From Vampirovibrionaceae bacterium NZW_1234 (lineage in GTDB: Bacteria > Cyanobacteriota > Vampirovibrionia > Vampirovibrionales > JAGQHJ01), in the NCBI GenBank assembly GCA_041697335.1, contig JBGUGD010000030.1, positions 160,001 to 224,000 on the forward strand: a stretch of DNA of 64,000 bases, given 5' to 3'. The notes under the pieces were generated by a model. That model was given only the letters and a program-made list of their open reading frames with translations. It searched no databases and was not told the DNA's origin. Shown piece after piece: positions 35,346 to 56,118 of this stretch; position 1 is the stretch's first letter; every line of letters starts with the position of its first letter. Made by a program: the position numbers and the translations under genes.

Positions 35346-35805
35346 AGCGGTTCACCTCACTATTCCCGTTTCTTCTTCCTGTGTTCCTGTTCGACTCGAA
35401 CTTATCGCCAAGATTGAATTCAAATTAATATTAAAAAATAGATGAACCAACCTAGTTATTGGCGACAGAGCATCCCCAGCGGGTCACCAGTCACATTTTC
35501 TAAAACCTTACGATTTAATCATATTTTGTCCATTCGATCAATACGCGTCATTGTTATGCGACGCGGAGCGAAAAATTTCGGTTGACATGACTGTCTGTGA
35601 TCGATAGGGTTAATACCGCCAATAGGCTTTTTAAGAGGAACCTTAGCTCTTCAAGTCGTGAAATAAAACTTTACTTGACATTGTGATAAGTAAGTTTGAT
35701 CATAAGTCAGTTATTATTCATATCACGAATAATAAATTAATTCTTTTCTATAACCTCTTAAACAGGCAGTATCGCATTAGGTAGTTGCAGAGTGAGATAG
35801 CAATA

Positions 35806-38058
35806 ATGAGAATAGCGAACTTAACTTCAGGGAATATGTTGCAGCGCACCAATCGGGGTGAGCAAGGTACAAAAAAAGTGGCACAGGGTAAACTGGGGAC
35901 TCAGTCTCCTTCGATGCCGACTGGCTATATGTCACTTTATGATAACGCTGGCCTTGCTGGGGTTCGATTCGGTGTTTCACTGAAAGGTGTTTTAAGTAAA
36001 TTCACCAACGCTGAATTTGATATTGCAGGCACCATGGCGCTTGAGCGCGAAGTGCCCATGCTGGACTACCTGAATGAGGTGGTGGATAAACCCGCTTTGC
36101 AGCGAAATACCAAACAGCGTATCTATGACATGATCACAGCCCGTGGAACGGACGATAAAAAAGTTCTGGGGCGTGAAGTGAAGACCTACAAGTTTTTTAC
36201 CGAACCTGACAATCCTGATGATGCCTTATTAGGTATGGAAGAACAGCTTCATACTGTTGTTGAACATTTACAGCAAGCAGCTTTGGGGACCGATGCCGGT
36301 AAAAAGCTTTTAATTCTGGTGGGTGGTCCTGGTAGCGGTAAGTCTACCGTCGCTCGGATTATTGTTCGAGGGTTGGAAAACTATTCTCGAACTGCCGATG
36401 GCGAACGCTACACGCTGAAATGGAAGTTACCTAAAGATGTGGCTCGCGCCATTGGTTTTGATAAACAGGAGTTTGTGGAAGAGGTCTACACTGATCCCGT
36501 CAAGCTGTTGCCTCTTGAAATGCGAAAAGATTTGGAAAAAACGTTAAACCGCAATAGCAAATTGCCCTATCCGATTAAGTTGTCCAAAGAAGGGTTACCA
36601 CCGGCCTCTCAAAAGCTTTACGACAAATTGCTGGCGTATGAAATTCAAAATGGTGGTCAAGATGGTGCTTTTGAGCGAGTTCTGCAAAAATATGCAATGG
36701 CCAAACGCTTTAAGGTCAGCTCTGTCCACCGGACCGGTTCGGGTAGCTTAGCCGCTGTTGATGGAAAGAGCTTAGACGTGACCCACATGTCCGGGGGCTC
36801 CAAAATGATTAAAGCGGCCACCTCCAGCGAAGGGGATCCGTGGGCCTATGATTTTGCCTCCGGTGAACTGTTTGCGGCTTCCGGTGGGGTCATGGAATTT
36901 ATCGAAATTCTGAAGCTGGATAAAGAGCACTTGTTGCCCATCTTGACGCTGAACGAAGAAGGCAAGGTGAAGCCCTCCAAGCAGCCACAGGTGGAAGTAG
37001 ACGAATTTGTTATTGCCCACACCAACTTGCCGGAATACGAAGCCAAGGCGGCTGATCCGGAAATGGCGGCAACCTGGGATCGGATGAAGATCGTTCGCTT
37101 CCCCTACAATACGGCAATTAGCTCTGAGCAGGCCATCTATGAGCGCAGCTTGCCTCTCTTGCATCAGCAAGGTATCAATGTTGCTCCGCATACGATGCGT
37201 ACGGCTTCCTTGTGGGTCATCTTGAGCCGACTGCTGCCAGCCAAGGATCGGAAGTTTGATCCCTTGACCAAAGCCCGTCTTTATAATGGCGAGCCGAATA
37301 AAGATATCGGGATGGCCGAAATTCGGGCCCTGAAAAAAGAAGGTGTGAAGGGCCGTGAAGGGATGGAAGGCATCTCGCCTCGGAAATTGAAAGATAACGT
37401 TATTCCGGCAATTATGACGCATCCGGATGTTCAGAAAACCAAATCCATTGATGGTTATGGTGTTTTGACCATTATTCGGGATAAGTTGGATTCCGGTGAA
37501 ATTGAGTTGGAAGGCGAAGTGAAAGACAAAGCCTACCAAAACCTGGAAATTGCTTTAAAAGATTTGGATGAGCACGTGAAAGAAGATGTCACGGAAGCCA
37601 TTGCCGGGGATCGGGATAACCTCAATGCCATCTTGGATGAATACCTGCGTAACGTGGAAGCCTTTGTGGATAAGAAAGATGTGAGCGATTGGCGTGGGAT
37701 TTCCTCTGGCCCCAGTGAACAGCTGATGCAATCCATCGAAAAGAAGATGGGGGTTTCCGACAATCGGACACACCGCCAAAAGCTGAATGCCATCTTAGGT
37801 TCCTATCGTCGTGATGGTAAGCCTATTGATCTGGATCTGTTCCCGGATATTAAAAAGGCCATTGTCCAACATGAGTTGGAACAATTGGAGCGCAACATTC
37901 CATGGAAGGCCTTGTGTACCACGGAGCCGTTGTCCACCAAGAAACAAGAAGATTATCGCCAGGGTGTCATTGGCAACCTGAAGAAAAAGGGGTACGACGA
38001 AGAGTCTGCACGTCACGCGCTGGCTCGGGTTGGTTCTCTGTTCAACACCAATAAGTAA
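35806..38058 (+). CDS. prkA: PrkA/YeaG-family AAA+ ATPase (serine kinase family) with N-terminal leader
   Basis: Walker A LVGGPGSGKST, DPWAYDFASGELFAASGGVMEFIEILK, VIAHTN, WDRMKIVRFPY, APHT, EGMEGISPR, C-terminal GYDEESA. Confidence 0.9.
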   Translation: MRIANLTSGNMLQRTNRGEQGTKKVAQGKLGTQSPSMPTGYMSLYDNAGLAGVRFGVSLKGVLSKFTNAEFDIAGTMALEREVPMLDYLNEVVDKPALQRNTKQRIYDMITARGTDDKKVLGREVKTYKFFTEPDNPDDALLGMEEQLHTVVEHLQQAALGTDAGKKLLILVGGPGSGKSTVARIIVRGLENYSRTADGERYTLKWKLPKDVARAIGFDKQEFVEEVYTDPVKLLPLEMRKDLEKTLNRNSKLPYPIKLSKEGLPPASQKLYDKLLAYEIQNGGQDGAFERVLQKYAMAKRFKVSSVHRTGSGSLAAVDGKSLDVTHMSGGSKMIKAATSSEGDPWAYDFASGELFAASGGVMEFIEILKLDKEHLLPILTLNEEGKVKPSKQPQVEVDEFVIAHTNLPEYEAKAADPEMAATWDRMKIVRFPYNTAISSEQAIYERSLPLLHQQGINVAPHTMRTASLWVILSRLLPAKDRKFDPLTKARLYNGEPNKDIGMAEIRALKKEGVKGREGMEGISPRKLKDNVIPAIMTHPDVQKTKSIDGYGVLTIIRDKLDSGEIELEGEVKDKAYQNLEIALKDLDEHVKEDVTEAIAGDRDNLNAILDEYLRNVEAFVDKKDVSDWRGISSGPSEQLMQSIEKKMGVSDNRTHRQKLNAILGSYRRDGKPIDLDLFPDIKKAIVQHELEQLERNIPWKALCTTEPLSTKKQEDYRQGVIGNLKKKGYDEESARHALARVGSLFNTNK

Positions 38059-38088: not shown

Positions 38089-40152
38089 ATGATACAGGTG
38101 TTGTATCGGAATCCGATTCATAATTTGCCTATGGCGAAAACCGTGAAGGTGCAGCGCCCTACAAAGGCTCTTCCTCAAGCGGTTGTTCGCTCCGGCTCGG
38201 CCTTGGCCAAGGTGTCCTCTGTGCCGCTTACTGCGACGCAATGGCAGGCCTATGTCTTGCCAAAATCCGATCGGCAAACCCGCTTTGGGATGAACTCGGA
38301 TATTTTCTCTCCCGGTGATATCCTACTGGGCGATCATCCTCCGGATGATGAGCTGGATGAGCTGGATGCGTCTCGTAAGTACCAGTGGGATATTATGACC
38401 CGGTCTCGGCCCGGATTCCCTCAAGGATGGCTACAACCGGAAGATACCGTATTTGTGGTCACCGATCAGATGCGGATGATGCAGGCCAATGCCCGAAATG
38501 GGTTTCCGCTTCGCTATAATCACTATAGCTGGGGTGAGGCCTTTAACCGGCTCTATCAAATGCAGGGCCATGGGTTGATGCGGATTTACGAAAGCGTCAT
38601 CAATACCAAGCCTTCGGTTGCCTATTTGTTGGATTTCAATCCGGTCTATGCACAGAAGCTGGTTATCGGACACGTGTTTGCACACACCGACTTCTTTAAG
38701 AATAATATCCGGTTCCAGGACTCGAACCGAGACATTATGCGAGTTATGGCCGACAATAAGCGCGCCATTGCCAAATATGCCTCTGACCCGATGATTTTAC
38801 GTAAAAGCGTCGGGAAAACCACCCCGGTGGAGCGGTTTATTGATGATTATAAGACGATGGAATGGCTCATTGACATGAGTAAATCCGCACCGCCGCCACT
38901 AACCCCCTATGGGCAGGCAACGGATCCATCTACGGTGGCTCAGGTGGATTTGGACATGGGGTTAAGCCGTCAAAAACTTGGCTTGGGTGGCTTGATGCGA
39001 GACTTTATTGTCTCTGAAGACGAGCGTTCGAAAGCCGTAGATGATGCGCTGACCCGTCGGGAAAATCGAATCAAAAACATTCCGCCAGAACCCACGCGAG
39101 ATGTCTTGGGCTTTTTAATTCAGCACTCTAAGTCGCTTGAACCTTGGCAGCGGGATATTTTAACCCGTCTTCGCGAAGAATCGTACTACTTTGCTCCTCA
39201 GATTCAAACCAAGGTTATGAATGAGGGGTGGGCGACCTGGTGGCATACCCGAATGGGTGCTGAAGGGGTCTATAAACCGGATGAGATGGTTCCGGTTGCC
39301 AAGATGATGGCCGGTGGTGAAGCTCATGACCCTCAGGGGCTTAACCCTTATTTGGTGGGTCGCACCATTTTCCATAATATCTATGAAAAAGCGGGGCGGG
39401 GTATTCCCATTGATGTGCCCGAGGAAGAACTGGTTAAACGCTATAGTATTGATGAGCTGATGGCGCTGAAAAAGAAACCCATTGACGATGAGTTGGGCAT
39501 CAAGGCCATTCAGCATGTGCGCAAATATGAAGATGATATGTCGTTCTTGCGCAAATATTTAACCGAGGACGTTGCCCGTGAATTGGGTCTGTACAATTAC
39601 GAAGAGGTAACCGATTTCCGGGGTAATACGGAAGAGGTTGTGACTTCCAAAGATTTCAATGCGGTCAAATCTCGGATTCTTCAAAATTATGACAATGGCG
39701 GTATGCCTATCATTGAAGTCGTCAATGGGGACTATCGCGGTCGCAGTGAATTGTTGCTGCGTCATGTCCATCTGTTCCAGGATCTGAATCGCAACGACGC
39801 CAAAGAGACGTTGAAATCGGTTTATCGGATGTGGGGTATGCCGGTTCACCTGGATACCTTCTACACCGCACCCGTGGATCCCAACCTGATTAACAGTTTG
39901 GTTCAATCGATCCGTAATGCCCGACAATATGGCCAAGGCAAAGCCTATTGGCGTGGCAGTGAAAAGACGTTACAGGAAATGGAACAAGAGTTGCATAAAC
40001 TGCAATCCAACAAGACGAAAGTCCCCATCCGATTCTCGACCGAAGATGGGAAGGATGTGTCCATTCGCGTCCTGAATGACAAAGGGGATACCACCAAAAA
40101 CTTCGATCCCAAAGATTTCGTGATTAAGGCAGACAGCGATTGGTATTGGTAG
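38089..40152 (+). CDS. spoVR: SpoVR/YcgB-family protein with N-terminal leader
   Basis: RYNHYSWG, IYESVIN, GHVFAHTDFFKNN, YFAPQIQTKVMNEGWATWWH, LNPYLVG, ELLLRH. Confidence 0.9.
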   Translation: MIQVLYRNPIHNLPMAKTVKVQRPTKALPQAVVRSGSALAKVSSVPLTATQWQAYVLPKSDRQTRFGMNSDIFSPGDILLGDHPPDDELDELDASRKYQWDIMTRSRPGFPQGWLQPEDTVFVVTDQMRMMQANARNGFPLRYNHYSWGEAFNRLYQMQGHGLMRIYESVINTKPSVAYLLDFNPVYAQKLVIGHVFAHTDFFKNNIRFQDSNRDIMRVMADNKRAIAKYASDPMILRKSVGKTTPVERFIDDYKTMEWLIDMSKSAPPPLTPYGQATDPSTVAQVDLDMGLSRQKLGLGGLMRDFIVSEDERSKAVDDALTRRENRIKNIPPEPTRDVLGFLIQHSKSLEPWQRDILTRLREESYYFAPQIQTKVMNEGWATWWHTRMGAEGVYKPDEMVPVAKMMAGGEAHDPQGLNPYLVGRTIFHNIYEKAGRGIPIDVPEEELVKRYSIDELMALKKKPIDDELGIKAIQHVRKYEDDMSFLRKYLTEDVARELGLYNYEEVTDFRGNTEEVVTSKDFNAVKSRILQNYDNGGMPIIEVVNGDYRGRSELLLRHVHLFQDLNRNDAKETLKSVYRMWGMPVHLDTFYTAPVDPNLINSLVQSIRNARQYGQGKAYWRGSEKTLQEMEQELHKLQSNKTKVPIRFSTEDGKDVSIRVLNDKGDTTKNFDPKDFVIKADSDWYW

Positions 40153-40161
40153 GGGTGACGT

Positions 40162-41952
40162 ATGATTATTAATCAACTTGGACAATTCATACAGAAACCG
40201 ACAAACACGGCTCGCCCCAGTGTTTCTCGGCGACCTGTGATGCCTGCGCTGAACCAGGATCTGTTTCAAATCTCCAGAGCGCAATCGGGCCAGAGTCGGC
40301 AAGTTCGTTTTTCGGGCGATGACGATGGCATGACCGATCCGGATACCAAGCGTTTCTGGGATATTGTCAAAGGTGTTGAGACGCCGGAGCACTTGCTGGA
40401 TCAAATTACCCGAGGCGGTTTAAAAATTGGCCAGGATGGTGGTGTGACGTTGCCGATGCCGACCATTAACCGCCCCACGTTCTCTTATAAACCCAATAGC
40501 GATAGCAATGATGATGGCGACGGCGATGGCGATGGGGATGGTCAAGGTGGACCAGGACAAGGCCCCGGTAAAGGTGGCGGTGTTGGGAGCAATCCTGGTG
40601 CCGGACCAGGTGACGTCATTGGTCAGGATGGCGATGGCGAAGGTGATGGCCAAGGTGGCAAAGGTGCTGGCCAAGGCGGTGGTGGTGGTGGCCGTGAAAA
40701 ATGGGAACGCCGCCTCACGGGAACCGAAGTTGCGAAATTGCTTGAGCAATTGGAACTCCCCTATTTGCAAGACAAAGGGCGGGGCCAGTTCCAACATGCC
40801 GGAATTCGGTGGAATAACAAGCGTCAACCGCCGCCGGGGATCCCGCTCAGAGAGTCGTATGATCCGGCCATTGCACGTGAAACATTCCACGTGAGTCAGG
40901 AACAAAAGAAGTTTATTGGCGAGCTTTATCAGGTGGCCTTTGGGCGAGAGCCTCAGGATGACGAGCTGGATTATTGGAAAGACGTACTCAAGGAGCTTGA
41001 GGCGGATAACCAGATGGATCTGGAAAACGTTGAGCCGTTGTTGATTGGCGAGTTTTTAACCTCGGAGCAGTATCAACAGCAGTTTGGCGGCAAAACCGAT
41101 AAGATGATTTCGGATGCCTACAAGCTGGCCATCGGCAAAGCGCCTTCTCGTCATGGGATTGAACTCTGGAGCAGCAAATTGGAAACCGGCTTAACGGTTA
41201 AAGATATGCCGCTTGCGCTTTACCAGATGTTTGGCGACAAGATGGACAGCCGACGTCGGAATATCGTTTTTAATCCCGATAATCTGATTATTGCACCCAA
41301 GGAAGTGCGACGCATTGACTGGAAAGAACACAAGAAGCCTTTTTCTCAGGCCGTTATTTTCTATGTCATGGATGTTTCCGGATCCATTTCCGATCAGGAT
41401 AAAGAAATGGCCCGGATGAACAACTACTTGCTCTCGACCTGGGTGAAATACCAGTATGGTTTGAAAGTGGCCAAGATGCAGGGCAAAAAGTACAACGACA
41501 AAGAATTTTTCGGCAAAAGTGTCGCTGAGCGTCATATCATTTTTACCGAGACTGCCAAAGAAGTGGATGCCGATGAGTTTTACACCACCTCTCAATCCGG
41601 TGGAACCAGTATTTCATCGGGGTTGAAGATGGTCGAAGAGATTATTGACAAAGATTATCCGCCCAAGGATTGGAACGTGTATGTGTTTGTTTATAGTGAC
41701 GGGGACTCTTGGAGCGACAACGATAAGTCCGTCAAGATTATTCAGGACTTGGAGAAAAAAGGGATTAATCTCATGGCATACGGTCACTTAGGGCAACGAA
41801 GCAGCATTTCCGGCAGTAATTTTGCCAATGTGCTCAATGAAAAATTCAAGGAATCCAAGACCGTGCGTCTTGCTGTCCTGGATCGTCCTGAGATGAAAAC
41901 CTATAAAGAAGCCATAAAAGCCATGTTGGCGAAAGAGAAGGAGGCTGTGTAA
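40162..41952 (+). CDS. YeaH/YhbH (DUF444) vWA-domain protein with leader and inserted domain
   Basis: Gly/Asp-rich linker, LELPYLQDK, MIDAS MDVSGS, SGGTSISSG, YPPKDWNVY, SDGD. Confidence 0.85.
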   Translation: MIINQLGQFIQKPTNTARPSVSRRPVMPALNQDLFQISRAQSGQSRQVRFSGDDDGMTDPDTKRFWDIVKGVETPEHLLDQITRGGLKIGQDGGVTLPMPTINRPTFSYKPNSDSNDDGDGDGDGDGQGGPGQGPGKGGGVGSNPGAGPGDVIGQDGDGEGDGQGGKGAGQGGGGGGREKWERRLTGTEVAKLLEQLELPYLQDKGRGQFQHAGIRWNNKRQPPPGIPLRESYDPAIARETFHVSQEQKKFIGELYQVAFGREPQDDELDYWKDVLKELEADNQMDLENVEPLLIGEFLTSEQYQQQFGGKTDKMISDAYKLAIGKAPSRHGIELWSSKLETGLTVKDMPLALYQMFGDKMDSRRRNIVFNPDNLIIAPKEVRRIDWKEHKKPFSQAVIFYVMDVSGSISDQDKEMARMNNYLLSTWVKYQYGLKVAKMQGKKYNDKEFFGKSVAERHIIFTETAKEVDADEFYTTSQSGGTSISSGLKMVEEIIDKDYPPKDWNVYVFVYSDGDSWSDNDKSVKIIQDLEKKGINLMAYGHLGQRSSISGSNFANVLNEKFKESKTVRLAVLDRPEMKTYKEAIKAMLAKEKEAV

Positions 41953-41954
41953 CG

Positions 41955-44684
41955 ATGGTTGACTCCATTTCTTTTTCTTCTTTGCCAGCGTTGGTTCGGC
42001 GTCGGTCGCTGTCGACCCCGGTAATGCCCAGAAAACCCATTGTGGTTACCCCGGGGTTAAAATCCTCAGCGTTTGGGTTGGCCAAGGGTGTTCATTACCA
42101 GGCCTATGCCTTGCCTCGTTTCTCAGCGGCAAACACGACACCCGTTGTGAAAGAAGCGCCAGCCCAAACCCAAAGTGGCGCTGCTGCTGAAAACGCTGAA
42201 GCCCAGGCGGATGCGTTGCTGAGTAAAATCACGACCGACACGAAGGTAAAATTCAAAGAAACCAAGCCGATGATGAGCTTGAAAGAGTTTATCTCGCTGG
42301 TTTACCAAGATCCCTATAAATACCTGCCTACTGCCAGTCACTATGCGGTTCGCGGTTTGAAGTCCTTCGGAACCGAGAATAAACGGGTGATGGGTGAAGA
42401 TGTGGTGGCGCACAAGTTTGTGAAAGCGCCCTGGAAATCCCAAGCCTTAAACGAAATTCCCGGGCTCCTGGGTCAAGATGAGGTGATTTCTCAGATTATT
42501 GAAACCCTGGAAGATTTTTCCCGAACCGGGAAGCAGAATCGGATGATTTTGCTTGTCGGCCCCAAAGGCAGCGGAAAAAGTGAAACCTGGCGCCTGGTCT
42601 CCAAGGCCCTGGAACTCTATTCACATCGACCTGAAGGGGTGCGCTATACGTTGAACTGGGTCTTCCCCAAGAGCAATCCCTTCGATATTATTCGCCCCTT
42701 AATGACGGAAGACGATTACAATCAGTGGGAAAAGACCAAGCAAGGCTCTTCTACCGTATTGTCTCCCAAAAATATCGGGGCACTTCTAGAGTCTAATTTA
42801 AATATTCACCCGCTGTTCTTGTTGCCGGTTCAGGATCGCGAAGCTTTAATCCAGGATCTGCACCGCCGGGGTAAGATTCAGAATACGGCTGAATTTAGTT
42901 ACTTCATCAACGGTAAACTGGATTCCTACTCCCAGAAGATTCTTGATGCTCTGACCGAACACTACGACGGGGATATGAGCAAGGTGTTCAACCACGTGAT
43001 GGTCGAGCGCTGGACGATGTCTGAACAAAGTGGTAAGGGTCTTGGCATGGTGCCGCCTGCGGCAAACCGAGATGCGATGTTAAAACAGGTGACTCCCGAT
43101 GTTCGATGGGATAGGTTCCCAGCCTTCCTGCAACGAGCTGGCCTGATGAAACTGGTGGGAGCCTTGCCCAATGCCAATGGCGGCTTGTTTAACATGGAAG
43201 ATATGGGCCGTAACATGGACCCGACCCGTTATGTGTATCTCCTGATCACCGGCGAAACAGGGGAGACCATTATTGACACCCATGGCCAGGATGATGCATC
43301 CACAGTTCGTGAACAATTGGATGTGGTTTTTGTAGGCAGCGCCAACCCGGAAAGCATCTTAAAAATGATGAAAGAAGGGCAATGGGATGCTTTGTCGAAG
43401 CGGACCAAATTGATTTATGTGCCGTATTTGCGCCAATATCGTGAAGAAGCCCAGATTTACGAACCCTTGCTGGCCAATCAGCGTCAACGGGGTCGAAAGA
43501 TCGATCCGTTTGTCAATGAAGCCTTCCCGTTGTTTTTGACGACCACGCGTTTGCTGCCCGTCAATGCAGATAATGCGGCTTATAAAAAGGTCAATAGCGA
43601 TGAATTGACAGAAGGCTTGAAAAAGCTCGATCCGTTACGCAAGGCGTTGCTGTATCAAGGGGAAGATTTAAATTCCTTTGAAAGTTCGCCGAATAAGGTG
43701 CCGCCTTTTGAACGACGGATTCAAGAAGCCCTGCATGATCATGTGGCCCTGGTCAAACATGAGCATGACCCGGATTCTCGCTCGGACATTGTCTCGAACT
43801 TTGAAGGCAGTCATGGCATCGATCCTCGTGAAGGTGAGGATTTGATGAAGCGGATATTAAACTATGATCCGGAGTCGCCGGTGACGGTCTTGACGATGTT
43901 TCAAGCTCTTGCCGATGTGGTCAAAACGGATATGAAATATCAGCAGGATTTGGTGCAAGCCATTAAAATGGATCCCAATTTCTTTGGCAAGTTTCAGAAG
44001 CCCGGGGCCAAGAAAGATGAAAGCCCGGCCTTTGTTCCGACGCCCATTGATTTGCTGAAGATGGTCGAGGGCCATATGCGACGGAAAATGCAGGTGGAAA
44101 TCAAAGAGGCCTTGAAGGTCTATCATGAGCCCAAGATCTATGCCGACCAGATTCGCAAGTATATGGCCCATGTTGAGGCCCGTAACAATACGACTGAAAT
44201 AGACGATCCGGAGCTGCGTTCACCAACATCCACGGATAAAACACCCGATCCGAATTTCATGAAGCGAATTGAATTGATTATTGCGCCTAGTGCCGTGAAA
44301 TCGGATAAGGATTTAGAAACCTTCCGGCTGGAAATGATGGGCCGTCAAAAGCGATGGGATCGGAGCCAATCCGTACAGGACAACATCTTGCGGATTTATG
44401 AGCCCGAGGTAAAAACCTTGATGACCCATGATGAAACCAAGTTCCAGGAACACCTGGATCGGTTGCTGGCCGATCTGCCCAAGGTCTTGCGTAATCCCAA
44501 TATTTACGACAACCAGGCCGATAAAAAAGATCATGTGGAACAAATTTTAGGAGGTATTGCAAAACTCACCGAGCGCGGTATACCCAAGGAAGCGTTGCCT
44601 CAAATGGTGGAGTGGGCCTTTGATCCGGCTCGAAACTTTATCTCCGATGGTACATTTAAAATTAGGAGGCCCTCGCAGTCATGA
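41955..44684 (+). CDS. Second PrkA-family AAA+ ATPase with N-terminal leader
   Basis: NRMILLVGPKGSGKS, LELYS..PEGVRY, GALPNANGGLFNMED, FVGSAN, VPYL, FEGSHGIDPRE. Confidence 0.82.
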   Translation: MVDSISFSSLPALVRRRSLSTPVMPRKPIVVTPGLKSSAFGLAKGVHYQAYALPRFSAANTTPVVKEAPAQTQSGAAAENAEAQADALLSKITTDTKVKFKETKPMMSLKEFISLVYQDPYKYLPTASHYAVRGLKSFGTENKRVMGEDVVAHKFVKAPWKSQALNEIPGLLGQDEVISQIIETLEDFSRTGKQNRMILLVGPKGSGKSETWRLVSKALELYSHRPEGVRYTLNWVFPKSNPFDIIRPLMTEDDYNQWEKTKQGSSTVLSPKNIGALLESNLNIHPLFLLPVQDREALIQDLHRRGKIQNTAEFSYFINGKLDSYSQKILDALTEHYDGDMSKVFNHVMVERWTMSEQSGKGLGMVPPAANRDAMLKQVTPDVRWDRFPAFLQRAGLMKLVGALPNANGGLFNMEDMGRNMDPTRYVYLLITGETGETIIDTHGQDDASTVREQLDVVFVGSANPESILKMMKEGQWDALSKRTKLIYVPYLRQYREEAQIYEPLLANQRQRGRKIDPFVNEAFPLFLTTTRLLPVNADNAAYKKVNSDELTEGLKKLDPLRKALLYQGEDLNSFESSPNKVPPFERRIQEALHDHVALVKHEHDPDSRSDIVSNFEGSHGIDPREGEDLMKRILNYDPESPVTVLTMFQALADVVKTDMKYQQDLVQAIKMDPNFFGKFQKPGAKKDESPAFVPTPIDLLKMVEGHMRRKMQVEIKEALKVYHEPKIYADQIRKYMAHVEARNNTTEIDDPELRSPTSTDKTPDPNFMKRIELIIAPSAVKSDKDLETFRLEMMGRQKRWDRSQSVQDNILRIYEPEVKTLMTHDETKFQEHLDRLLADLPKVLRNPNIYDNQADKKDHVEQILGGIAKLTERGIPKEALPQMVEWAFDPARNFISDGTFKIRRPSQS

Positions 44685-45961
44685 CCGTTGCTCTGACCCC
44701 AGTGAATCAGTTTGTGTCCTCACGTTTATTGGCCAGTAAAGGGGGTGTTTCTCCCAAGCGGCCTGTATCCCGCCAGCCGCGTTTTGCCGGTCAATTCAGT
44801 CAGCCAGTAACGGCACCGGTATCCAATCAGCAATTGGTGTCGGCGCTCAAGGGCCAGGTTAAGTTTGGCTCCTTGGGACAACTGATCAGTATTGCCCCGG
44901 GGTATAAGTTGGGTGAAGCTCGGGCAGCTCATAACCAGCCCCTGAATCGGATGCCCAGCATTATTTTGGAAAGCGCCACCGGCGATAAAATCGCGATCGA
45001 TCCGGTTTCGGCCAATTTTGAGCGCAATATTATCGAGTTTACCGAAGATTTTAATCAAGACTCGGCTCGCGCCTTTAATGCCCAGGTCGATTTTCTGAAA
45101 AACAAAATCCTGGATAAACGTGCTAAGGGCGAAATTAAAGACCCCAGTGAAGAAACGGTTCATATTTACATCAATAGCCCGGGTGGGATGATTATCTCGC
45201 TTTATGCCATGATCGATGCTGTTGATACGTTGAAAAAAGCCAATATCCCCGTGGCTACCTACTGCCGTGGCATGGCTGCCAGTTGCGGTTCGGTATTGTT
45301 TGCCCTGGGTACTCCCGGCCAGCGTTATATGACCCCCCATGGGCGTGTTTTGGTGCACCAACCGTTGGGTGGAAGTTATGGTCAGGCAACGGATATCGGG
45401 CTTCAGAACGAAGAAATTCAAGAGATGAAAATTAAGCTGACCGATATTTTGTCCCTCTCTGCGCTGGAGGGCAAAATCATTCGATTGCAGAAAGAAGTGG
45501 ATCGCCTGTCGGAATCCGAAAATCAGTGGTCCCCGAATGTACAGGCCCGGCAAAAGCAAATTGCGCAATTTGAGGCGGAGAAAGTTCGGATTCGTAAAAC
45601 CCAGGAAGCTCGCACTCAACAGAAAATTTACATTACCCAGGCCGAAATGCTGAAAGCAGAAGACCGGAGTCAAGAAGCCGAAGAGGCCTTGGCTAAAGGC
45701 CAAAAGCTCGTAACCGATACCATTGCAGCCGTCACCAGCGAAGCCCGTGAGCAGGAGCGTCAGCGTTTAACCGAGGTGATTGCCAATTCCGATGGTGCGA
45801 CGAAGACTACGGCAGAACGAGAATTGAGACGCTTGGATGATCGCAAGGTCCCCTATAGCTCGACTCGCGAACGTATGGCCCAAGTCATGGAGCGCGATCG
45901 CTGGTTGACTGCTGAAGAAGCCGTTGAGTACGGCTTAGCGGACGGTATTGTCACCCGCTAA
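44681..45961 (+). CDS. clpP: ClpP-family peptidase with N-terminal leader and large coiled-coil insertion
   Basis: IYINSPGG, GMAASCGS (Ser201), VLVHQPLGG (His226), GQATDI, MERDRWLTAEEAVEYGLAD (Asp406). Confidence 0.85.
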   Translation: MTVALTPVNQFVSSRLLASKGGVSPKRPVSRQPRFAGQFSQPVTAPVSNQQLVSALKGQVKFGSLGQLISIAPGYKLGEARAAHNQPLNRMPSIILESATGDKIAIDPVSANFERNIIEFTEDFNQDSARAFNAQVDFLKNKILDKRAKGEIKDPSEETVHIYINSPGGMIISLYAMIDAVDTLKKANIPVATYCRGMAASCGSVLFALGTPGQRYMTPHGRVLVHQPLGGSYGQATDIGLQNEEIQEMKIKLTDILSLSALEGKIIRLQKEVDRLSESENQWSPNVQARQKQIAQFEAEKVRIRKTQEARTQQKIYITQAEMLKAEDRSQEAEEALAKGQKLVTDTIAAVTSEAREQERQRLTEVIANSDGATKTTAERELRRLDDRKVPYSSTRERMAQVMERDRWLTAEEAVEYGLADGIVTR

Positions 45962-46096
45962 GTGGTTTTTCACACGCACCCTCGATTGACTTGATTCAGA
46001 TCCCCGTATTGTCGCTGCTGCTGGGCTCGTGTCTTGTGATTCTTTCAGGTACAATGGCCCAACATGGGCCGTATTGATACGAGAGAGGAGCGTTTT

Positions 46097-47623
46097 ATGA
46101 AGGTGGTTGCGAAATCCGGTAATGTATTGACCAGTGATGCTGACGCCTTGGTGGTCAACTTGTTTGAAGGCGTAACCCAGCCGGGGGGTGGCACGGGAGC
46201 GGTGGATCAGGCCTTGGATGGGGCGATTCGCCAAGAGATTGAACATGGCAAGGCCTTTAAAGGCAAACTGGGCGAAACCCTGATTTTGCCCACCTATGGA
46301 AAGCTTCCTGCACGCTATGTGGTGGTAGTTGGCTTAGGCAAGGCAGAGGATTGCAAAAGCCTGCAACTGCGTCGAGCGAGTGCTGCTGCGATTCGCGCCT
46401 GTCAAAAACTCAAGGTGTCTTCGGTAGCCACCTTGCTTCATGGGGCTGGGATTGGTCAAATTGATGCTCAGGCAGCGGCTCGGCTCTTGGCCGAAGGAGC
46501 CATTCTCGGCAATTACCGCTTCACGTTGAGAAAGACCAAAGACCCAGCGGATGAGCCTGTGTCCATTGACACGCTCACCGTGGTCGAACAGGATCAAGCA
46601 AAGCTGGGTGCGATTGAGACCGGTTTGCGGTGGGGGGCGGCCATTGCCCAAGCCACGTGCCAGGCGCGCGATTGGGTACAGGACAGCCCCAACTACGTAA
46701 CGCCCACATTTTTGGCAGAGCAAGCCCAAAAACTGAAGGGCGGGCAAGTGCAATGTCAGGTTTTGGACAAGGCCGAAATTGAAAAGCTGGGTATGGGGTC
46801 CTTTTTAAGTGTGGCTCGCGGCAGTGTGGAGCCCCCTAAGCTGATTCATTTGACCTACACGCCTGCGACCGGCACGCCCAAAAAGAAAGTGACCTTGGTG
46901 GGCAAGGGAATTACCTTTGATAGTGGGGGGTTGTCCTTAAAGCCAGCTGCGTCCATGGAACTGATGAAAAACGATATGACGGGTGCTGCGGTGGTCATTG
47001 CCACGATGCGGGCTCTGGCGGAACTGGGTGACCTGGATATCCAGGTGGATGTTGTGGCCCCATGCTGTGAGAACATGCCCAGTGGTCAGGCTAATCGTCC
47101 GGGAGACATTGTGACGGCCATGAACGGGAAGACCATTGAGATCAACAACACCGATGCTGAAGGTCGGCTGATCCTCTGTGATGCTCTGGTGTATGCCCAA
47201 AAACACATTCAGCCGGATGAGCTCATTGATCTGGCGACCTTGACAGGGGCATGCATTATGGCCTTGGGCAAAGAGGCCTCGGGCATTATGGGCACCGATG
47301 ACAGCCTGTTAGAAGCAGTCAGAAAAGCCGGAAATGTGGCAGGTGAAAGATTCTGGCCATTACCGCTTTTTGATGAATTCAAGGACATGCTTAAAAGCGA
47401 TGTGGCTGATCTGATTAATGCCGGCAGCAAAGGCCAAGCCGGGTCTTCTGCAGGTGGGATGTTTTTAAAAGCCTTTATCGAGGATAACCAAAAGTGGGTT
47501 CATCTGGACATTGCCGGGCCTTCCTGGACCGATCGCGATGTGCCCGAAGTCCCCAAAGGCGGTACGGGTGTGGGTGTACGAACATTACTATACTATTTGT
47601 ATCAGATTGCAGAAGTGTCTTAA
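46097..47623 (+). CDS. pepA: Leucyl aminopeptidase (M17)
   Basis: LVGKGITFDSGG, MKNDMTG, NTDAEGRL, DLATLTGA, WVHLDIAG; GAGGAG RBS. Confidence 0.95.
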   Translation: MKVVAKSGNVLTSDADALVVNLFEGVTQPGGGTGAVDQALDGAIRQEIEHGKAFKGKLGETLILPTYGKLPARYVVVVGLGKAEDCKSLQLRRASAAAIRACQKLKVSSVATLLHGAGIGQIDAQAAARLLAEGAILGNYRFTLRKTKDPADEPVSIDTLTVVEQDQAKLGAIETGLRWGAAIAQATCQARDWVQDSPNYVTPTFLAEQAQKLKGGQVQCQVLDKAEIEKLGMGSFLSVARGSVEPPKLIHLTYTPATGTPKKKVTLVGKGITFDSGGLSLKPAASMELMKNDMTGAAVVIATMRALAELGDLDIQVDVVAPCCENMPSGQANRPGDIVTAMNGKTIEINNTDAEGRLILCDALVYAQKHIQPDELIDLATLTGACIMALGKEASGIMGTDDSLLEAVRKAGNVAGERFWPLPLFDEFKDMLKSDVADLINAGSKGQAGSSAGGMFLKAFIEDNQKWVHLDIAGPSWTDRDVPEVPKGGTGVGVRTLLYYLYQIAEVS

Positions 47624-48785: not shown

Positions 48786-49931
48786 CTATTCGATACCCAA
48801 CTGCCGCTGTTGTGGGATGATGCCCCGGGCTTGTTGCAGATTGGGCTGGATACCTGGATTGCCAGCAATGCCTTGTCTTGGAATGATGGGGCGAATCCCT
48901 GTAGCCTGCCCCGGTCTTATGCCAGGTTGGCCAAGGGGAGTCCCGGGTTGACCTTGTCCCACAAAAGGGGCACCTGTGGGATTGCCGACGCCTTGGAAGT
49001 TAATCCCTGGATTAACTTGTGGTGCTACGTTACCATTTCCCAGCTGCCCAATGATGTTGCCTGCTGGGGTATTGCCGCCGCTCAGGAGATCGATCCCTGC
49101 GTTCCCTTGCGGGATGGGTAAGCCGCCATTGGTGAATTGACCAATAATATTCCCGGCAGGAGAATTGCCGCCTGTGGCAATGTTCACACCACCATTGGGG
49201 CCGACTGTGGGAAACCCGCCATTGGTGAGTTGGCCGATGATATTCCCGGCAGGAGAATTGCCGCCTGTGGCAATGTTCGCACCACCATTGGCACCTACGA
49301 CGGGGAAGCCTCCGTTGGTGAGTTGAGCAATAATGTTGCCCCCGGGGGAATTCCCACCCGCTGCAATATTGGCCCCACCGGTACCCATGGAGACGGGAAA
49401 GCCGCCGTTGGTGAGGAGGGAAATAATACCGGCACTGCGGGTTGTCCCGCCGCTTAAGACACTGTTGTCAAAATTGGGCAGAAAACCAAAGGGGTTGTTG
49501 CCGAAAATTTGAGAAACGATATTGGTTCCTTGCCGCCAGGGTGGCGTCCAGGAGACGGGTAACCCAATCGGGCGCCCAGGACCGATATTGGGGCGACCAA
49601 ACCCACTGAACCAGTTTTGACTTTGGTTGAGTACCACTTGCAGGAGTTGAATAATGACATCGAGCAATTGATCATCCAGGGAGGGTCTTGTGGGGCCTGG
49701 AGGAGAAATCCGTCTTGTCAGAGATGCACTGGTTTCGGGAGGGGCATCAGCACCCCGGGTGCCACCATTGGTAGCGCCATTGGAACTGCCGCCACCGCTT
49801 GTTTCTGGGTTTGCAAGGCGAATAAAGCTAAATGACTCAATCTGTCCTTCATTGTCGGTTTTGATTTTGAGCTCGCCATTCTTGGGCAAGCCGCGCACCA
49901 TCGACGCTGGGTTCAATGCCACGTCAGACAT
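48786..49931 (-). CDS. Gly/Asn/Pro-rich protein with 31-aa tandem repeats
   Basis: Start MSDVAL after GGAGG; four 93-bp repeats LTNGGFPxxxxxGGANIAxGGNSPAGNIIGQ. Confidence 0.75.
   Translation of the reverse strand: MSDVALNPASMVRGLPKNGELKIKTDNEGQIESFSFIRLANPETSGGGSSNGATNGGTRGADAPPETSASLTRRISPPGPTRPSLDDQLLDVIIQLLQVVLNQSQNWFSGFGRPNIGPGRPIGLPVSWTPPWRQGTNIVSQIFGNNPFGFLPNFDNSVLSGGTTRSAGIISLLTNGGFPVSMGTGGANIAAGGNSPGGNIIAQLTNGGFPVVGANGGANIATGGNSPAGNIIGQLTNGGFPTVGPNGGVNIATGGNSPAGNIIGQFTNGGLPIPQGNAGIDLLSGGNTPAGNIIGQLGNGNVAPQVNPGINFQGVGNPTGAPFVGQGQPGTPLGQPGIRPGQATGIRPIIPRQGIAGNPGIQPNLQQARGIIPQQRQLGIE
49044..49415 (-). repeat. Four 93-bp coding tandem repeat units
   Basis: Unit starts at 49415, 49322, 49229, 49136, then a partial unit from 49043. 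Confidence 0.85.
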
Positions 49932-50028
49932 TCGATACCTCCGAGAAAAATCCTTGATACACACACACGACACACAATCTATGTTTGTATAAAAACAGGC
50001 AAGTGTGGAATGCTGCCTTAAAAAAATA

Positions 50029-53850: not shown

Positions 53851-56118
53851 TTGTTCGTGATAGTCCCTGTACATCACGTCCCGGCACAATCAAGTGTTGT
53901 CCCCCCGAAAGCAAAAGGCTACGGGTACCCGCCAAAACACACCTATCTCCCAGCAGTTCAACACAATAGCCTATTTACCGCCCCCCGATTCGGGACGGAT
54001 AAGGAAGTGCATCGCACTGGGGAGACGAAGTTTATTCATGTCTTGCAACATGCGGCAGCCCCCTTTCGAGAATTGCTGCAAGGGCTCGCATTGGCGGTTC
54101 GCCGTTTTGGTCAATGGTTGGGCAATGTCTGGTTTCGGATTATGCGCATGGTGTCTCCGGTTTCGGTGCCCCAGCTGCGTGATGCTCTCAACCCGTTGAT
54201 GGTTCAAGCTCAACATCGGTTCCCCATTCCCATGGTTCGTGCCAAGCTCCTCAAAGAAGGGTCGCCGGATGCGCTTTTGCCCTATCGGGAGTTGGAGCGC
54301 CGCTATCGGCGGAATCCGGAGCAGCGGGTACGCTTGCTGGAAAACTTTGTGACCTCCGAAGCCACGGCTTATTTGGCCAGCCATCTGCTGGCCTTGCAGG
54401 AAGCCATCCGAAATCCGGGCCAACCCCTGCGGATTGATCGAAGCCACATCCCCGCGGCGGTTCGGATGGGGGTGGATGATGCCAATGCCATCGTGGCCCG
54501 GCGCACCAAAGAATTGCTTTATGCCAAGGACAAGCAGCCCATTGCGGACAACCTGTATAACCTGATTCTGGAGTCACCCAAGGTGGCCTTGCACGAGCAT
54601 TATCGTGGGTGTGCGCCCATGGCCATGGTGCGGGCGTGGTTTATGGCCCAGAATGACCCCATTGCCTTTAAGTCCAATGATGAGTTGGAAGAATACTGCC
54701 GGATTGATCGTCTGTTTACCCCGGACGGCGAGGGCCCGCTGTATCAACCGAGTTTGGATCGATACCGCTGGAAGAACGACAATATCGTCTCGGTCTCCAT
54801 TAATTCAACGGAGACGGCGTATATGGCGGCCTATATGTATACCCTTCGTTCCGGGTTGGAAAATGTCCGCTACTTCGAGTATCGCCTAAACCCCATCAGT
54901 AAAGGGGTAAAGGACTCTATCGCCTACGCAAAGGCCATCCAGCAGGGTATTCACGATGGCAAGATGTTTCTCAAGGAATCTCGGGGGCAGGATATTGATG
55001 CCAACCTGATCTATTCCGCCGACCGGCAGCCCAAACCCGGGGTGGAGGTGAACAATCCGCTGGCGCCAAAGATTGATGATCGGATTTGGCTGGCGATGAA
55101 GATTATTGTTCTGGCCATCAAGTCTCGTCTGATGGGGATGCATGTGACCGGGTTTGATGTTCAGGGCTCTGAAGCCAACTACGCCATTATGGACTTTGAA
55201 CCCGTGGCTCGGATGCTGGCCCGTTGGAATCGGGTGGCCAAGGCCATGAACCAGATGAAGATGCCGGGCTGGGAGAAGGACTACCGTGTGGGTGCAACGC
55301 TTCACTCGGGTGAAACGCCACTGTCCGGCTTGATTAGCCATAAAGATGCGCCCATTACCGGGGCCGAATCTGTGGAGCGTTCCGTGGAGCTGTTCACCCG
55401 GAAGGACACCTCGCCCATGAATCTGATGGCCGTGGGGCAGGCGATTCAACAGTTACTCAAGACCCCGGACACGCAACTGGATGACGCCACCACCTTACGG
55501 GTCATCGATCTGCTGTTGCCCAAGGAGGACCGACGGAAACTGGGGACAAGTCGCGGGGCCTTGAAAGCCGAATCCCAGGCCATGCCTGCGCCCAATGAGC
55601 TGCCCCCGGATCAGGACCCGGACATTGATACCCCGGTGCGCATTGGCCATGGGGTGCAGCTGAAGTTCGGGCCGCGTTGGTTGATTGATGCCTGCTGGAA
55701 GCACAAGATTGGGTTTGAACAATGTCCCAAGAGCAATGTGCAGACCGGGGCCGTGTCCTACTATAACGAATTGCCCACCCTGGTGATGTCTCGTCCCCGG
55801 GACGAGGGCCACGGGTTGATGGTGTCCATCAGCCGCGATAACGGGACGACCTCCAAGACGAATATGCCCAACGAACTGGTGAAGTTGACCCGTCACCTGA
55901 AGGCCCGTCACGAGGATCGCAAGCGCTTCCAGATCAACGGGATTCAAACGGCCTTTCTCTTTGACCCGGAGCTAAAGACCAAGATTCGCCAGGAGATGTT
56001 ACAGCGCTTCCACCGTCTGGAGTCTCGCCCGGCTTATGGTGAAGTCATTCGTCACGAGCAGGATCCACGTCTGTTTAAGCGGCTGATTGAAAATCGCCGG
56101 GGGGCTCACACGGCCTGA
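53851..56118 (+). CDS. Adenosine/AMP deaminase-fold protein with long N-terminal extension
   Basis: PKVALHEHYRG, ENVRYFEYR, VTGFDVQGSE, TLHSGE, RIGHG, EQCPKSN, SISRDN. Confidence 0.78.
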   Translation: MFVIVPVHHVPAQSSVVPPKAKGYGYPPKHTYLPAVQHNSLFTAPRFGTDKEVHRTGETKFIHVLQHAAAPFRELLQGLALAVRRFGQWLGNVWFRIMRMVSPVSVPQLRDALNPLMVQAQHRFPIPMVRAKLLKEGSPDALLPYRELERRYRRNPEQRVRLLENFVTSEATAYLASHLLALQEAIRNPGQPLRIDRSHIPAAVRMGVDDANAIVARRTKELLYAKDKQPIADNLYNLILESPKVALHEHYRGCAPMAMVRAWFMAQNDPIAFKSNDELEEYCRIDRLFTPDGEGPLYQPSLDRYRWKNDNIVSVSINSTETAYMAAYMYTLRSGLENVRYFEYRLNPISKGVKDSIAYAKAIQQGIHDGKMFLKESRGQDIDANLIYSADRQPKPGVEVNNPLAPKIDDRIWLAMKIIVLAIKSRLMGMHVTGFDVQGSEANYAIMDFEPVARMLARWNRVAKAMNQMKMPGWEKDYRVGATLHSGETPLSGLISHKDAPITGAESVERSVELFTRKDTSPMNLMAVGQAIQQLLKTPDTQLDDATTLRVIDLLLPKEDRRKLGTSRGALKAESQAMPAPNELPPDQDPDIDTPVRIGHGVQLKFGPRWLIDACWKHKIGFEQCPKSNVQTGAVSYYNELPTLVMSRPRDEGHGLMVSISRDNGTTSKTNMPNELVKLTRHLKARHEDRKRFQINGIQTAFLFDPELKTKIRQEMLQRFHRLESRPAYGEVIRHEQDPRLFKRLIENRRGAHTA

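Follow-up and report, generated by a model that had tools for sequence, protein, structure and literature searches.

What can a ClpP peptidase do with a large extra segment between its catalytic His and Asp, a stretch that houses the handle helix and whose length hardly varies in this family? The question is raised by a clpP gene lying directly behind a pair of prkA genes in the window analysed here, that is, the whole 64,000-nucleotide stretch of contig JBGUGD010000030.1 (GCA_041697335.1, positions 160,001-224,000, forward strand) in which all coordinates below are counted. The features are as follows.

35785..38058, + strand: prkA1, PrkA/YeaG-type AAA+ ATPase (Pfam AAA_PrkA and PrkA)
38089..40152, + strand: spoVR-like gene with leader (Pfam SpoVR, 292 bits)
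40162..41952, + strand: yeaH/yhbH (DUF444, vWA-like); has a leader and an internal DUF4214 stretch
41955..44684, + strand: prkA2, second PrkA paralogue, Walker B divergent
44681..45961, + strand: clpP of the PrkA-linked subfamily (protein P0001), 426 aa, from Pfam CLP_protease, trees, model and fold match
44681..44869, + strand: clpP leader of 63 residues, no Asp/Glu, 8 Lys/Arg, ending KFG
45281..45283, + strand: catalytic Ser201 codon (invariant column of alignment A5)
45356..45358, + strand: catalytic His226 codon (invariant column of alignment A5)
45461..45862, + strand: insert, aa 261-394 (net +131), from alignment columns and predicted model, with a homologue in P0085
45896..45898, + strand: catalytic Asp406 codon (alignment A5), with an E-R pair just before it, presumably the ring-assembly sensor
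46064..47623, + strand: pepA, M17 aminopeptidase, downstream of clpP (Pfam)

The genes prkA1-spoVR-yeaH-prkA2-clpP form an operon with intergenic gaps of 30, 9, 2 and -4 bases, the last being an overlap of the prkA2 stop with the start of clpP (ATGA), the final gene. The PrkA AAA, DUF444 and SpoVR genes that define a PrkA-YeaH-SpoVR module are thus found in a single operon. The same three families share one operon in B. subtilis (PrkA-YhbH-SpoVR) and in E. coli (YeaG(SpdA)-YeaH-YcgB); relative to these stress modules, the present one has a second PrkA paralogue, a clpP of its own and a leader on every member. PrkA1, whose N-terminal leader ends in RFG and whose Walker A and B motifs are intact in the motif alignment, is homologous to PDB chain 9xip (E 2e-79), from a PrkA-family structure deposited as 9xip-9xir. 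The gene pepA also follows clpP in G003, a genome of the same family, but not in the other loci examined, and its adjacency is probably family-level synteny rather than module membership. Promoter and terminator counts were no higher than chance, a search of Rfam gave no match, and no photosynthetic reaction-centre match was found in this genome.

Several observations on the neighbourhood may be recorded here. YeaH (40162-41952) carries a long Gly/Asp-rich linker in addition to its DUF4214 stretch, and the orthologues in G030 and G040 are likewise enlarged, at 674 aa. Further downstream lie a 395-aa protein that is rich in Gly and Asn, contains internal repeats and matches nothing in Pfam (48786-49973, - strand) and a 755-aa protein resembling adenosine deaminase, with an RFG leader and a long region at its N-terminus (53851-56118, + strand). 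Elsewhere, the prkA operon of locus L093 (G044:C30) is in many pieces and apparently decaying, and loci L101-L107, of family f5, have the order prkA-prkA-yeaH-spoVR and, behind it, a pair of conserved unknown genes, one of them Cys-rich, with no clpP.

By domain, triad and fold, the product of the 44681-45961 frame is a ClpP. The Pfam CLP_protease profile scored 129.8 bits against a curated cut-off of 20.2, its match being split in two stretches. Residues S201, H226 and D406 lie in the usual motifs, at columns that are invariant or near-invariant among the 101 sequences of alignment A5, namely 21 members of the subfamily described below and 80 ClpPs outside it, the housekeeping ClpP of this genome included. 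The distance from His226 to Asp406 is 180 residues, as the first-pass annotation had pointed out against a canonical value of about 49; it was 47-56 in all 80 outside ClpPs, and exactly 49 in 60 of these. With bacterial ClpP (S14; E. coli, S. aureus, TIGR00493) the protein has in common the fold, the Ser-His-Asp triad, the handle strand and helix and the sensor pair; it differs in this spacing, in its 63-residue leader and in its position after prkA2. It is not the housekeeping equivalog that partners ClpX/ClpC: its TIGR00493 score of 115.4 bits falls short of the equivalog cut-off of 308.6, and the tig-clpP-clpX context is lacking. A separate copy in the same genome, lying between tig and clpX, scored 329.6. 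ClpR, a ClpP paralogue described as devoid of the catalytic triad (PMC7966870), is excluded by the intact triad, and judging from these residues the enzyme is likely active. As a separate observation, one branch of PrkA-linked ClpPs (L045:9882-10940, L050:9625-10761 and P0008) has Glu or Ala at the catalytic Asp column and fewer residues between Ser and His, so that its triad may be altered.

Columns nearly private to P0001, filled in 2-6 rows of A5, correspond to residues 261-394 (45461-45862), close to the segment of about aa 262-393 delimited in the first-pass annotation. Three of them hold the normal loop, which leaves a net insert of 131 residues beginning at the end of the handle helix. 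That this segment is an artefact, an intein or a mobile element, or that it sits in a dead, ClpR-like enzyme, is a reading we hold to be very improbable and already largely refuted, although its rarity, documented below, speaks in its favour. Contigs from public runs, four in number, match the sequence at 99% or more and bridge both junctions: the 5' junction lies within a contig of run X1 (44469-45769) and the 3' junction within one of run X5 (45669-45937), each with zero differences. Runs X1, X3 and X5 are one sample, possibly the window's own source, and the gene is not contained as a whole in any one piece. Together with a homologous insert in a second protein (P0085, see below), these contigs refute the assembly artefact that the first-pass annotation had envisaged. 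Residues 262-393 abound in E, A, R, Q and K, with neither His nor Cys among them; the insert gave chance matches only in Pfam and no Hint match at E<=1. An intein is thereby excluded, in line with the earlier remark that no intein-type terminus is present. No flanking repeats were detected around the insert beyond short two-copy matches. Its composition follows that of the core (GC3 0.54 versus 0.53; codon-adaptation index 0.768 versus 0.767).

A model built from a deep alignment (pLDDT 92.8, pTM 0.87, with insert blocks at 92-98) superseded an earlier single-sequence model with a poor core and a pLDDT of 60. Its core superposes on human ClpP with Z 22.4 and an rmsd of 1.4 A over 179 aligned residues, and so the fold appears undisturbed by the insert. 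Against the concern that the triad might be unable to form stand this predicted core and the intact catalytic residues. The handle helix is predicted to run unbroken from 236 to 279 (44 residues), about 20 residues past its usual end. It is followed by predicted helices 285-326 (42 residues), 330-369 (40) and 372-384 (13), then by a linker, after which a normal core helix (394-403) leads to Asp406. Computed from the model, the helix lengths are 66, 63, 60 and 20 A; the linker has 9 residues. Since only two sequences carry the insert, the columns modelled there rest on these two and the packing of the arm has almost no covariation support.

The first-pass description of a coiled coil protruding from an intact ClpP after the handle helix is thus borne out by the predicted model and the fold match as regards a helical, protruding arm. 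The term itself proved too tight: several helices rather than one simple coil are predicted, and their hydrophobic moments were not significant against shuffles (p 0.09-0.92). Fold searches with the deep-alignment model returned ClpP and crotonase folds only, the insert being barely probed. Residues 244-360 of the single-sequence model matched the bMERB domain of MICAL-3 (Z 10.3, rmsd 3.0, 116 residues aligned, 7% identity), a match below the trust level for helical bundles (Z under 13), from a low-confidence model and among many generic helical hits. The bMERB domain is described as having a helix on either side that folds back onto a central one (PMC5026484); the likeness is one of shape only, and implies neither homology nor Rab binding.

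Are there other ClpPs with the same insert, as the first-pass annotation had proposed to look for? A profile search of 1.84 billion representatives yielded one, the distant orthologue P0085, a 462-aa ClpP with a His-Asp spacing of 188 (longest contig, 2073 bases). Its insert lies at the same site, is colinear with that of P0001 (141 versus 134 residues) and has 30 identical positions (22%). The alignment gave z 4.6-7.8, none of 2000 shuffles was as good, and a reversed control gave background. Between the cores, 93 of 187 residues (50%) are identical. Because length and colinearity were kept while the cores diverged to this extent, the insert is probably under some constraint, and it appears to have been retained across a long divergence. 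P0085 keeps the triad, while its handle strand and sensor Arg are degenerate in A5.

No third carrier of the long insert was found by a single-sequence search of about 5.8 billion protein clusters, by a two-sequence profile at E<=1e-30 or among shorter proteins, in a metagenome scan (25 loci, whose matches were all of ordinary ClpP length or partial), in GTDB scans with P0085 and P0045, or in 400 other genomes of the phylum. The cluster search and the phylum genomes are the results that favour the artefact or dead-enzyme reading; the bridged junctions, the P0085 homologue, the absence of a Hint domain, of Cys and His and of flanking repeats, the intact triad and the undisturbed core all stand against it. 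Searched against its own genome, the insert gave a best E of 1.1, and an Atlas search gave no usable match.

To place the gene, ClpPs of its kind were sought in 401 genomes of the class, 75 of which have PrkA. The subfamily is present in 10 of the 401, and in 10 of 10 it directly follows prkA2. Its cut-off, E<=4e-50, was chosen after a gap had been seen, the next nine matches, at about 1e-45, being ordinary frames of 207-216 aa. In core trees from quick searches the subfamily is a clade apart from housekeeping ClpP (SH-aLRT 99); one long-branch sequence, para_G002, fell inside it in the first tree and was omitted from the second. The reverse linkage is looser. Among 20 further PrkA loci from the 75 genomes, one has clpP, and in five (G002, G030, G040, G054, G099) the four-gene operon is intact but no clpP follows in the downstream sequence, which is at least 1 kb long, so a dedicated ClpP is not needed by the PrkA module everywhere. 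The rest comprise one locus in pieces, two without prkA2, four at a contig edge and seven of another order without clpP; for one contig-edge locus, that of G107, prkA2-clpP lies on another contig.

Within the subfamily, the spacing between His and Asp is far from fixed. Among the 10 operon-linked ClpPs it is 49-50 in seven, 115 in two (G038 and G020) and 180 here; metagenomic members have 53, 53, 64, 99 and 188. Insert sizes at this loop are +4, +15, +50, +66, +131 and +139. The 66-residue inserts of G038 and G020 are unrelated to the long one. P0001, P0085 and P0045 form a clade (support 99), and inclusion of the G038 protein in it was rejected (p-AU 0.00095), from which it follows that the loop gained inserts at least twice. 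Kinship of the P0045 and G038 inserts with the long insert was considered and dropped, as 805-1984 of 3000 shuffles were as good, and by profile 65 and 91 of 300. The loop after the handle helix thus seems unusually permissive in this subfamily, and by sequence comparison the long arm would be a lineage-specific addition, outside any shared PrkA interface.

Some further points concern ClpPs in this lineage. The near-identical P0045 and P0152 differ by a 9-residue indel within their 50-residue insert, so this loop is still changing. Two ClpP paralogues of 711 and 726 aa in this genome (L002:274-2406 and L004:172-2349, on G000 contigs C15 and C14) have an apparent degenerate ClpP-like region followed by an intact-looking C-terminal ClpP domain, similar frames of 620-870 aa being present in many relatives of the order. 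Another ClpP subfamily of order relatives (L043, L044, L047-L049, L052-L054; 326-367 aa), not beside prkA, mostly has leaders ending [RK]FG-like and long C-terminal tails. The set of leader-bearing ClpPs is thus expanded in the lineage.

Such permissiveness raises the possibility that the insert is a passenger tolerated in a surface loop, with little function and perhaps clipped after translation. The series of insert sizes, their gain at least twice independently (p-AU 0.00095) and the lack of similarity of the other inserts to the long one would all agree with this. A precedent for a large translated insertion in a ClpP subunit is IS1 of the Chlamydomonas chloroplast protein ClpP1, which sits upstream of the catalytic residues. 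In the structural study, ClpP1H is reported to be processed and IS1 has no density (10.1101/2021.07.26.453741), whereas the present insert, between His226 and Asp406, is predicted to be ordered; the difference in position excludes an insertion of the IS1 type. Both this predicted order and the significant colinear similarity and conserved length in P0085, at 50% core identity, count against a passenger, which we regard as improbable.

The reading we prefer, as plausible though somewhat short of probable, is that the 131 residues form a helical arm on the outer wall of the barrel that braces the handle helix and the contact between rings. The 42-residue helix would run antiparallel back along the whole of the 44-residue handle helix, which would put the next turn near the equator; the third helix would then return, the helix lengths closing most simply that way. 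Seven arms per ring could form a sheath around the handle helices that favours the double ring in its extended, active form, or they could close over the side exits. A brace on the outer wall is suggested by the role attributed to the ClpP handle, which mediates ring stacking and the switch between active and inactive barrel shapes (PMC12383707). The direction given to the arm rests on helix-length arithmetic, the generic helical match below trust level mentioned above and general ClpP geometry. Changed ring-ring assembly, one of the options offered by the first-pass annotation, would fit this geometry best. The degenerate handle strand and sensor Arg of P0085 are as would be expected if the arm took over some of the bracing; against this, the sensor Arg is replaced too in P0003 (A5), which has no insert. 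It also counts against a brace that 7 of the 10 operon-linked orthologues manage without any insert. The nearest precedents, each of another position and origin, are IS1 for a large insert and, for an outer brace, the side mass of Chlamydomonas ClpP, in which a long helix is reported to join one ring to the other along the outside (10.1101/2021.07.26.453741). This A1 side mass of the plastid Clp core is described as coming from C-terminal extensions and ClpT in a hetero-oligomer, whereas the arm would be present here on every subunit.

Could the upper ends of the arms instead project as seven spikes, a crown to which the PrkA ring, YeaH or SpoVR would bind in this lineage, or which would keep the housekeeping ClpX/ClpC away? 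Three observations lend themselves to such a docking or selectivity device. Some 20 residues of helix are predicted past the end of the handle helix. Tyr163, which we take to be the ClpX-pocket residue that receives IGF loops, is retained in P0001; of the 21 subfamily members just 3 have it, and these carry the longest inserts, whereas it is kept in 66 of 80 other ClpPs. And no IGF-like loop is conserved in the alignments of PrkA1 or PrkA2, so that, with the pocket Tyr so rare, any docking of PrkA would have to be non-canonical. The IGF at PrkA1 223-225 was considered as a ClpX-type docking loop and rejected, since the loop around it is variable and none of the 19 other PrkA1-type sequences aligned has it at that column. 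The Tyr correlation comes from three sequences, and P0045 (+50) has Glu there. Docking of the PrkA ring, which the first-pass annotation had suggested, is weakened further by the distribution of inserts: with seven of the ten prkA2-adjacent ClpPs devoid of any insert and two bearing the unrelated 66-residue one, the arm cannot be a general PrkA dock. We therefore find this second reading unlikely.

Independently of the arm, the gene order points to this ClpP as the likely peptidase chamber of the prkA1-spoVR-yeaH-prkA2 module, a pairing that draws on gene linkage and translational overlap only. PrkA rings would unfold substrates chosen by YeaH and SpoVR, and the unfolded chains would pass into this ClpP through contacts independent of the arm. 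PrkA1 keeps Walker A and B, while Walker B of PrkA2 is divergent across 14 aligned sequences. Complex prediction for ClpP 94-426 and the C-terminal portions of the two PrkA proteins scored 0.00 in two runs and counts neither way. In E. coli, YeaG(SpdA) is reported to be required for non-specific bulk proteolysis during starvation, and the passages on this proteolysis, like the Discussion, name no peptidase (PMC13684143). Whether PrkA is itself a protease is disputed between two reports: slow digestion of casein was described for the B. subtilis protein (PMC9512850), and negligible activity, with no protease active-site residues, for the B. anthracis homologue (PMC13001217). A literature search, with most subscription papers outside its scope, returned nothing on a PrkA-linked ClpP or on the insert.

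The leaders suggest one more role for the arm. All five operon proteins have acid-poor leaders that contain [RK]F[GS], 12 family-f5 proteins from three clpP-less loci have no comparable extension, and across the genome [RK]FG is enriched within the N-terminal 40 residues (98 matches, versus about 5 per later 10-residue bin). Going by these motifs, the five-protein module might leave the cytoplasm or be delivered to a host or prey cell, the arm serving as a targeting or substrate-catching element required there; Vampirovibrio is described as digesting algal prey by secreted hydrolases (PMC10974524). Such an export seems quite unlikely to us, as no VirB4-type match was obtained with PF03135 in this 94.75% complete genome, operons without ClpP bear leaders too, and the arm resembles no known binding domain in Pfam or the Atlas.

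Taken alone, the insert is a structural curiosity in two sequences. Several of these threads might be joined in one picture, which remains doubtful but deserves to be spelled out: PrkA/YeaG would be a ClpP-feeding unfoldase and the operon a fourth kind of AAA+-ClpP protease, with a PrkA1/PrkA2 ring, YeaH/SpoVR adaptors, a dedicated barrel, no IGF docking, a shared address leader on its five parts and, here, a cage of fourteen arms that locks or gates the equator. For the ClpP family, an arm of 131 residues that is predicted to be ordered, in a segment otherwise nearly constant in length, would be a natural probe of the switch between active and inactive barrels, and it marks a site at which the barrel could display entire domains. 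The main value of the gene is that it offers a testable peptidase partner for PrkA/YeaG. Because the operon brings its own ClpP, reconstitution of the five proteins can test directly whether PrkA unfolds substrates for ClpP, and the PrkA/YeaG route to protein breakdown would become directly testable through this operon.
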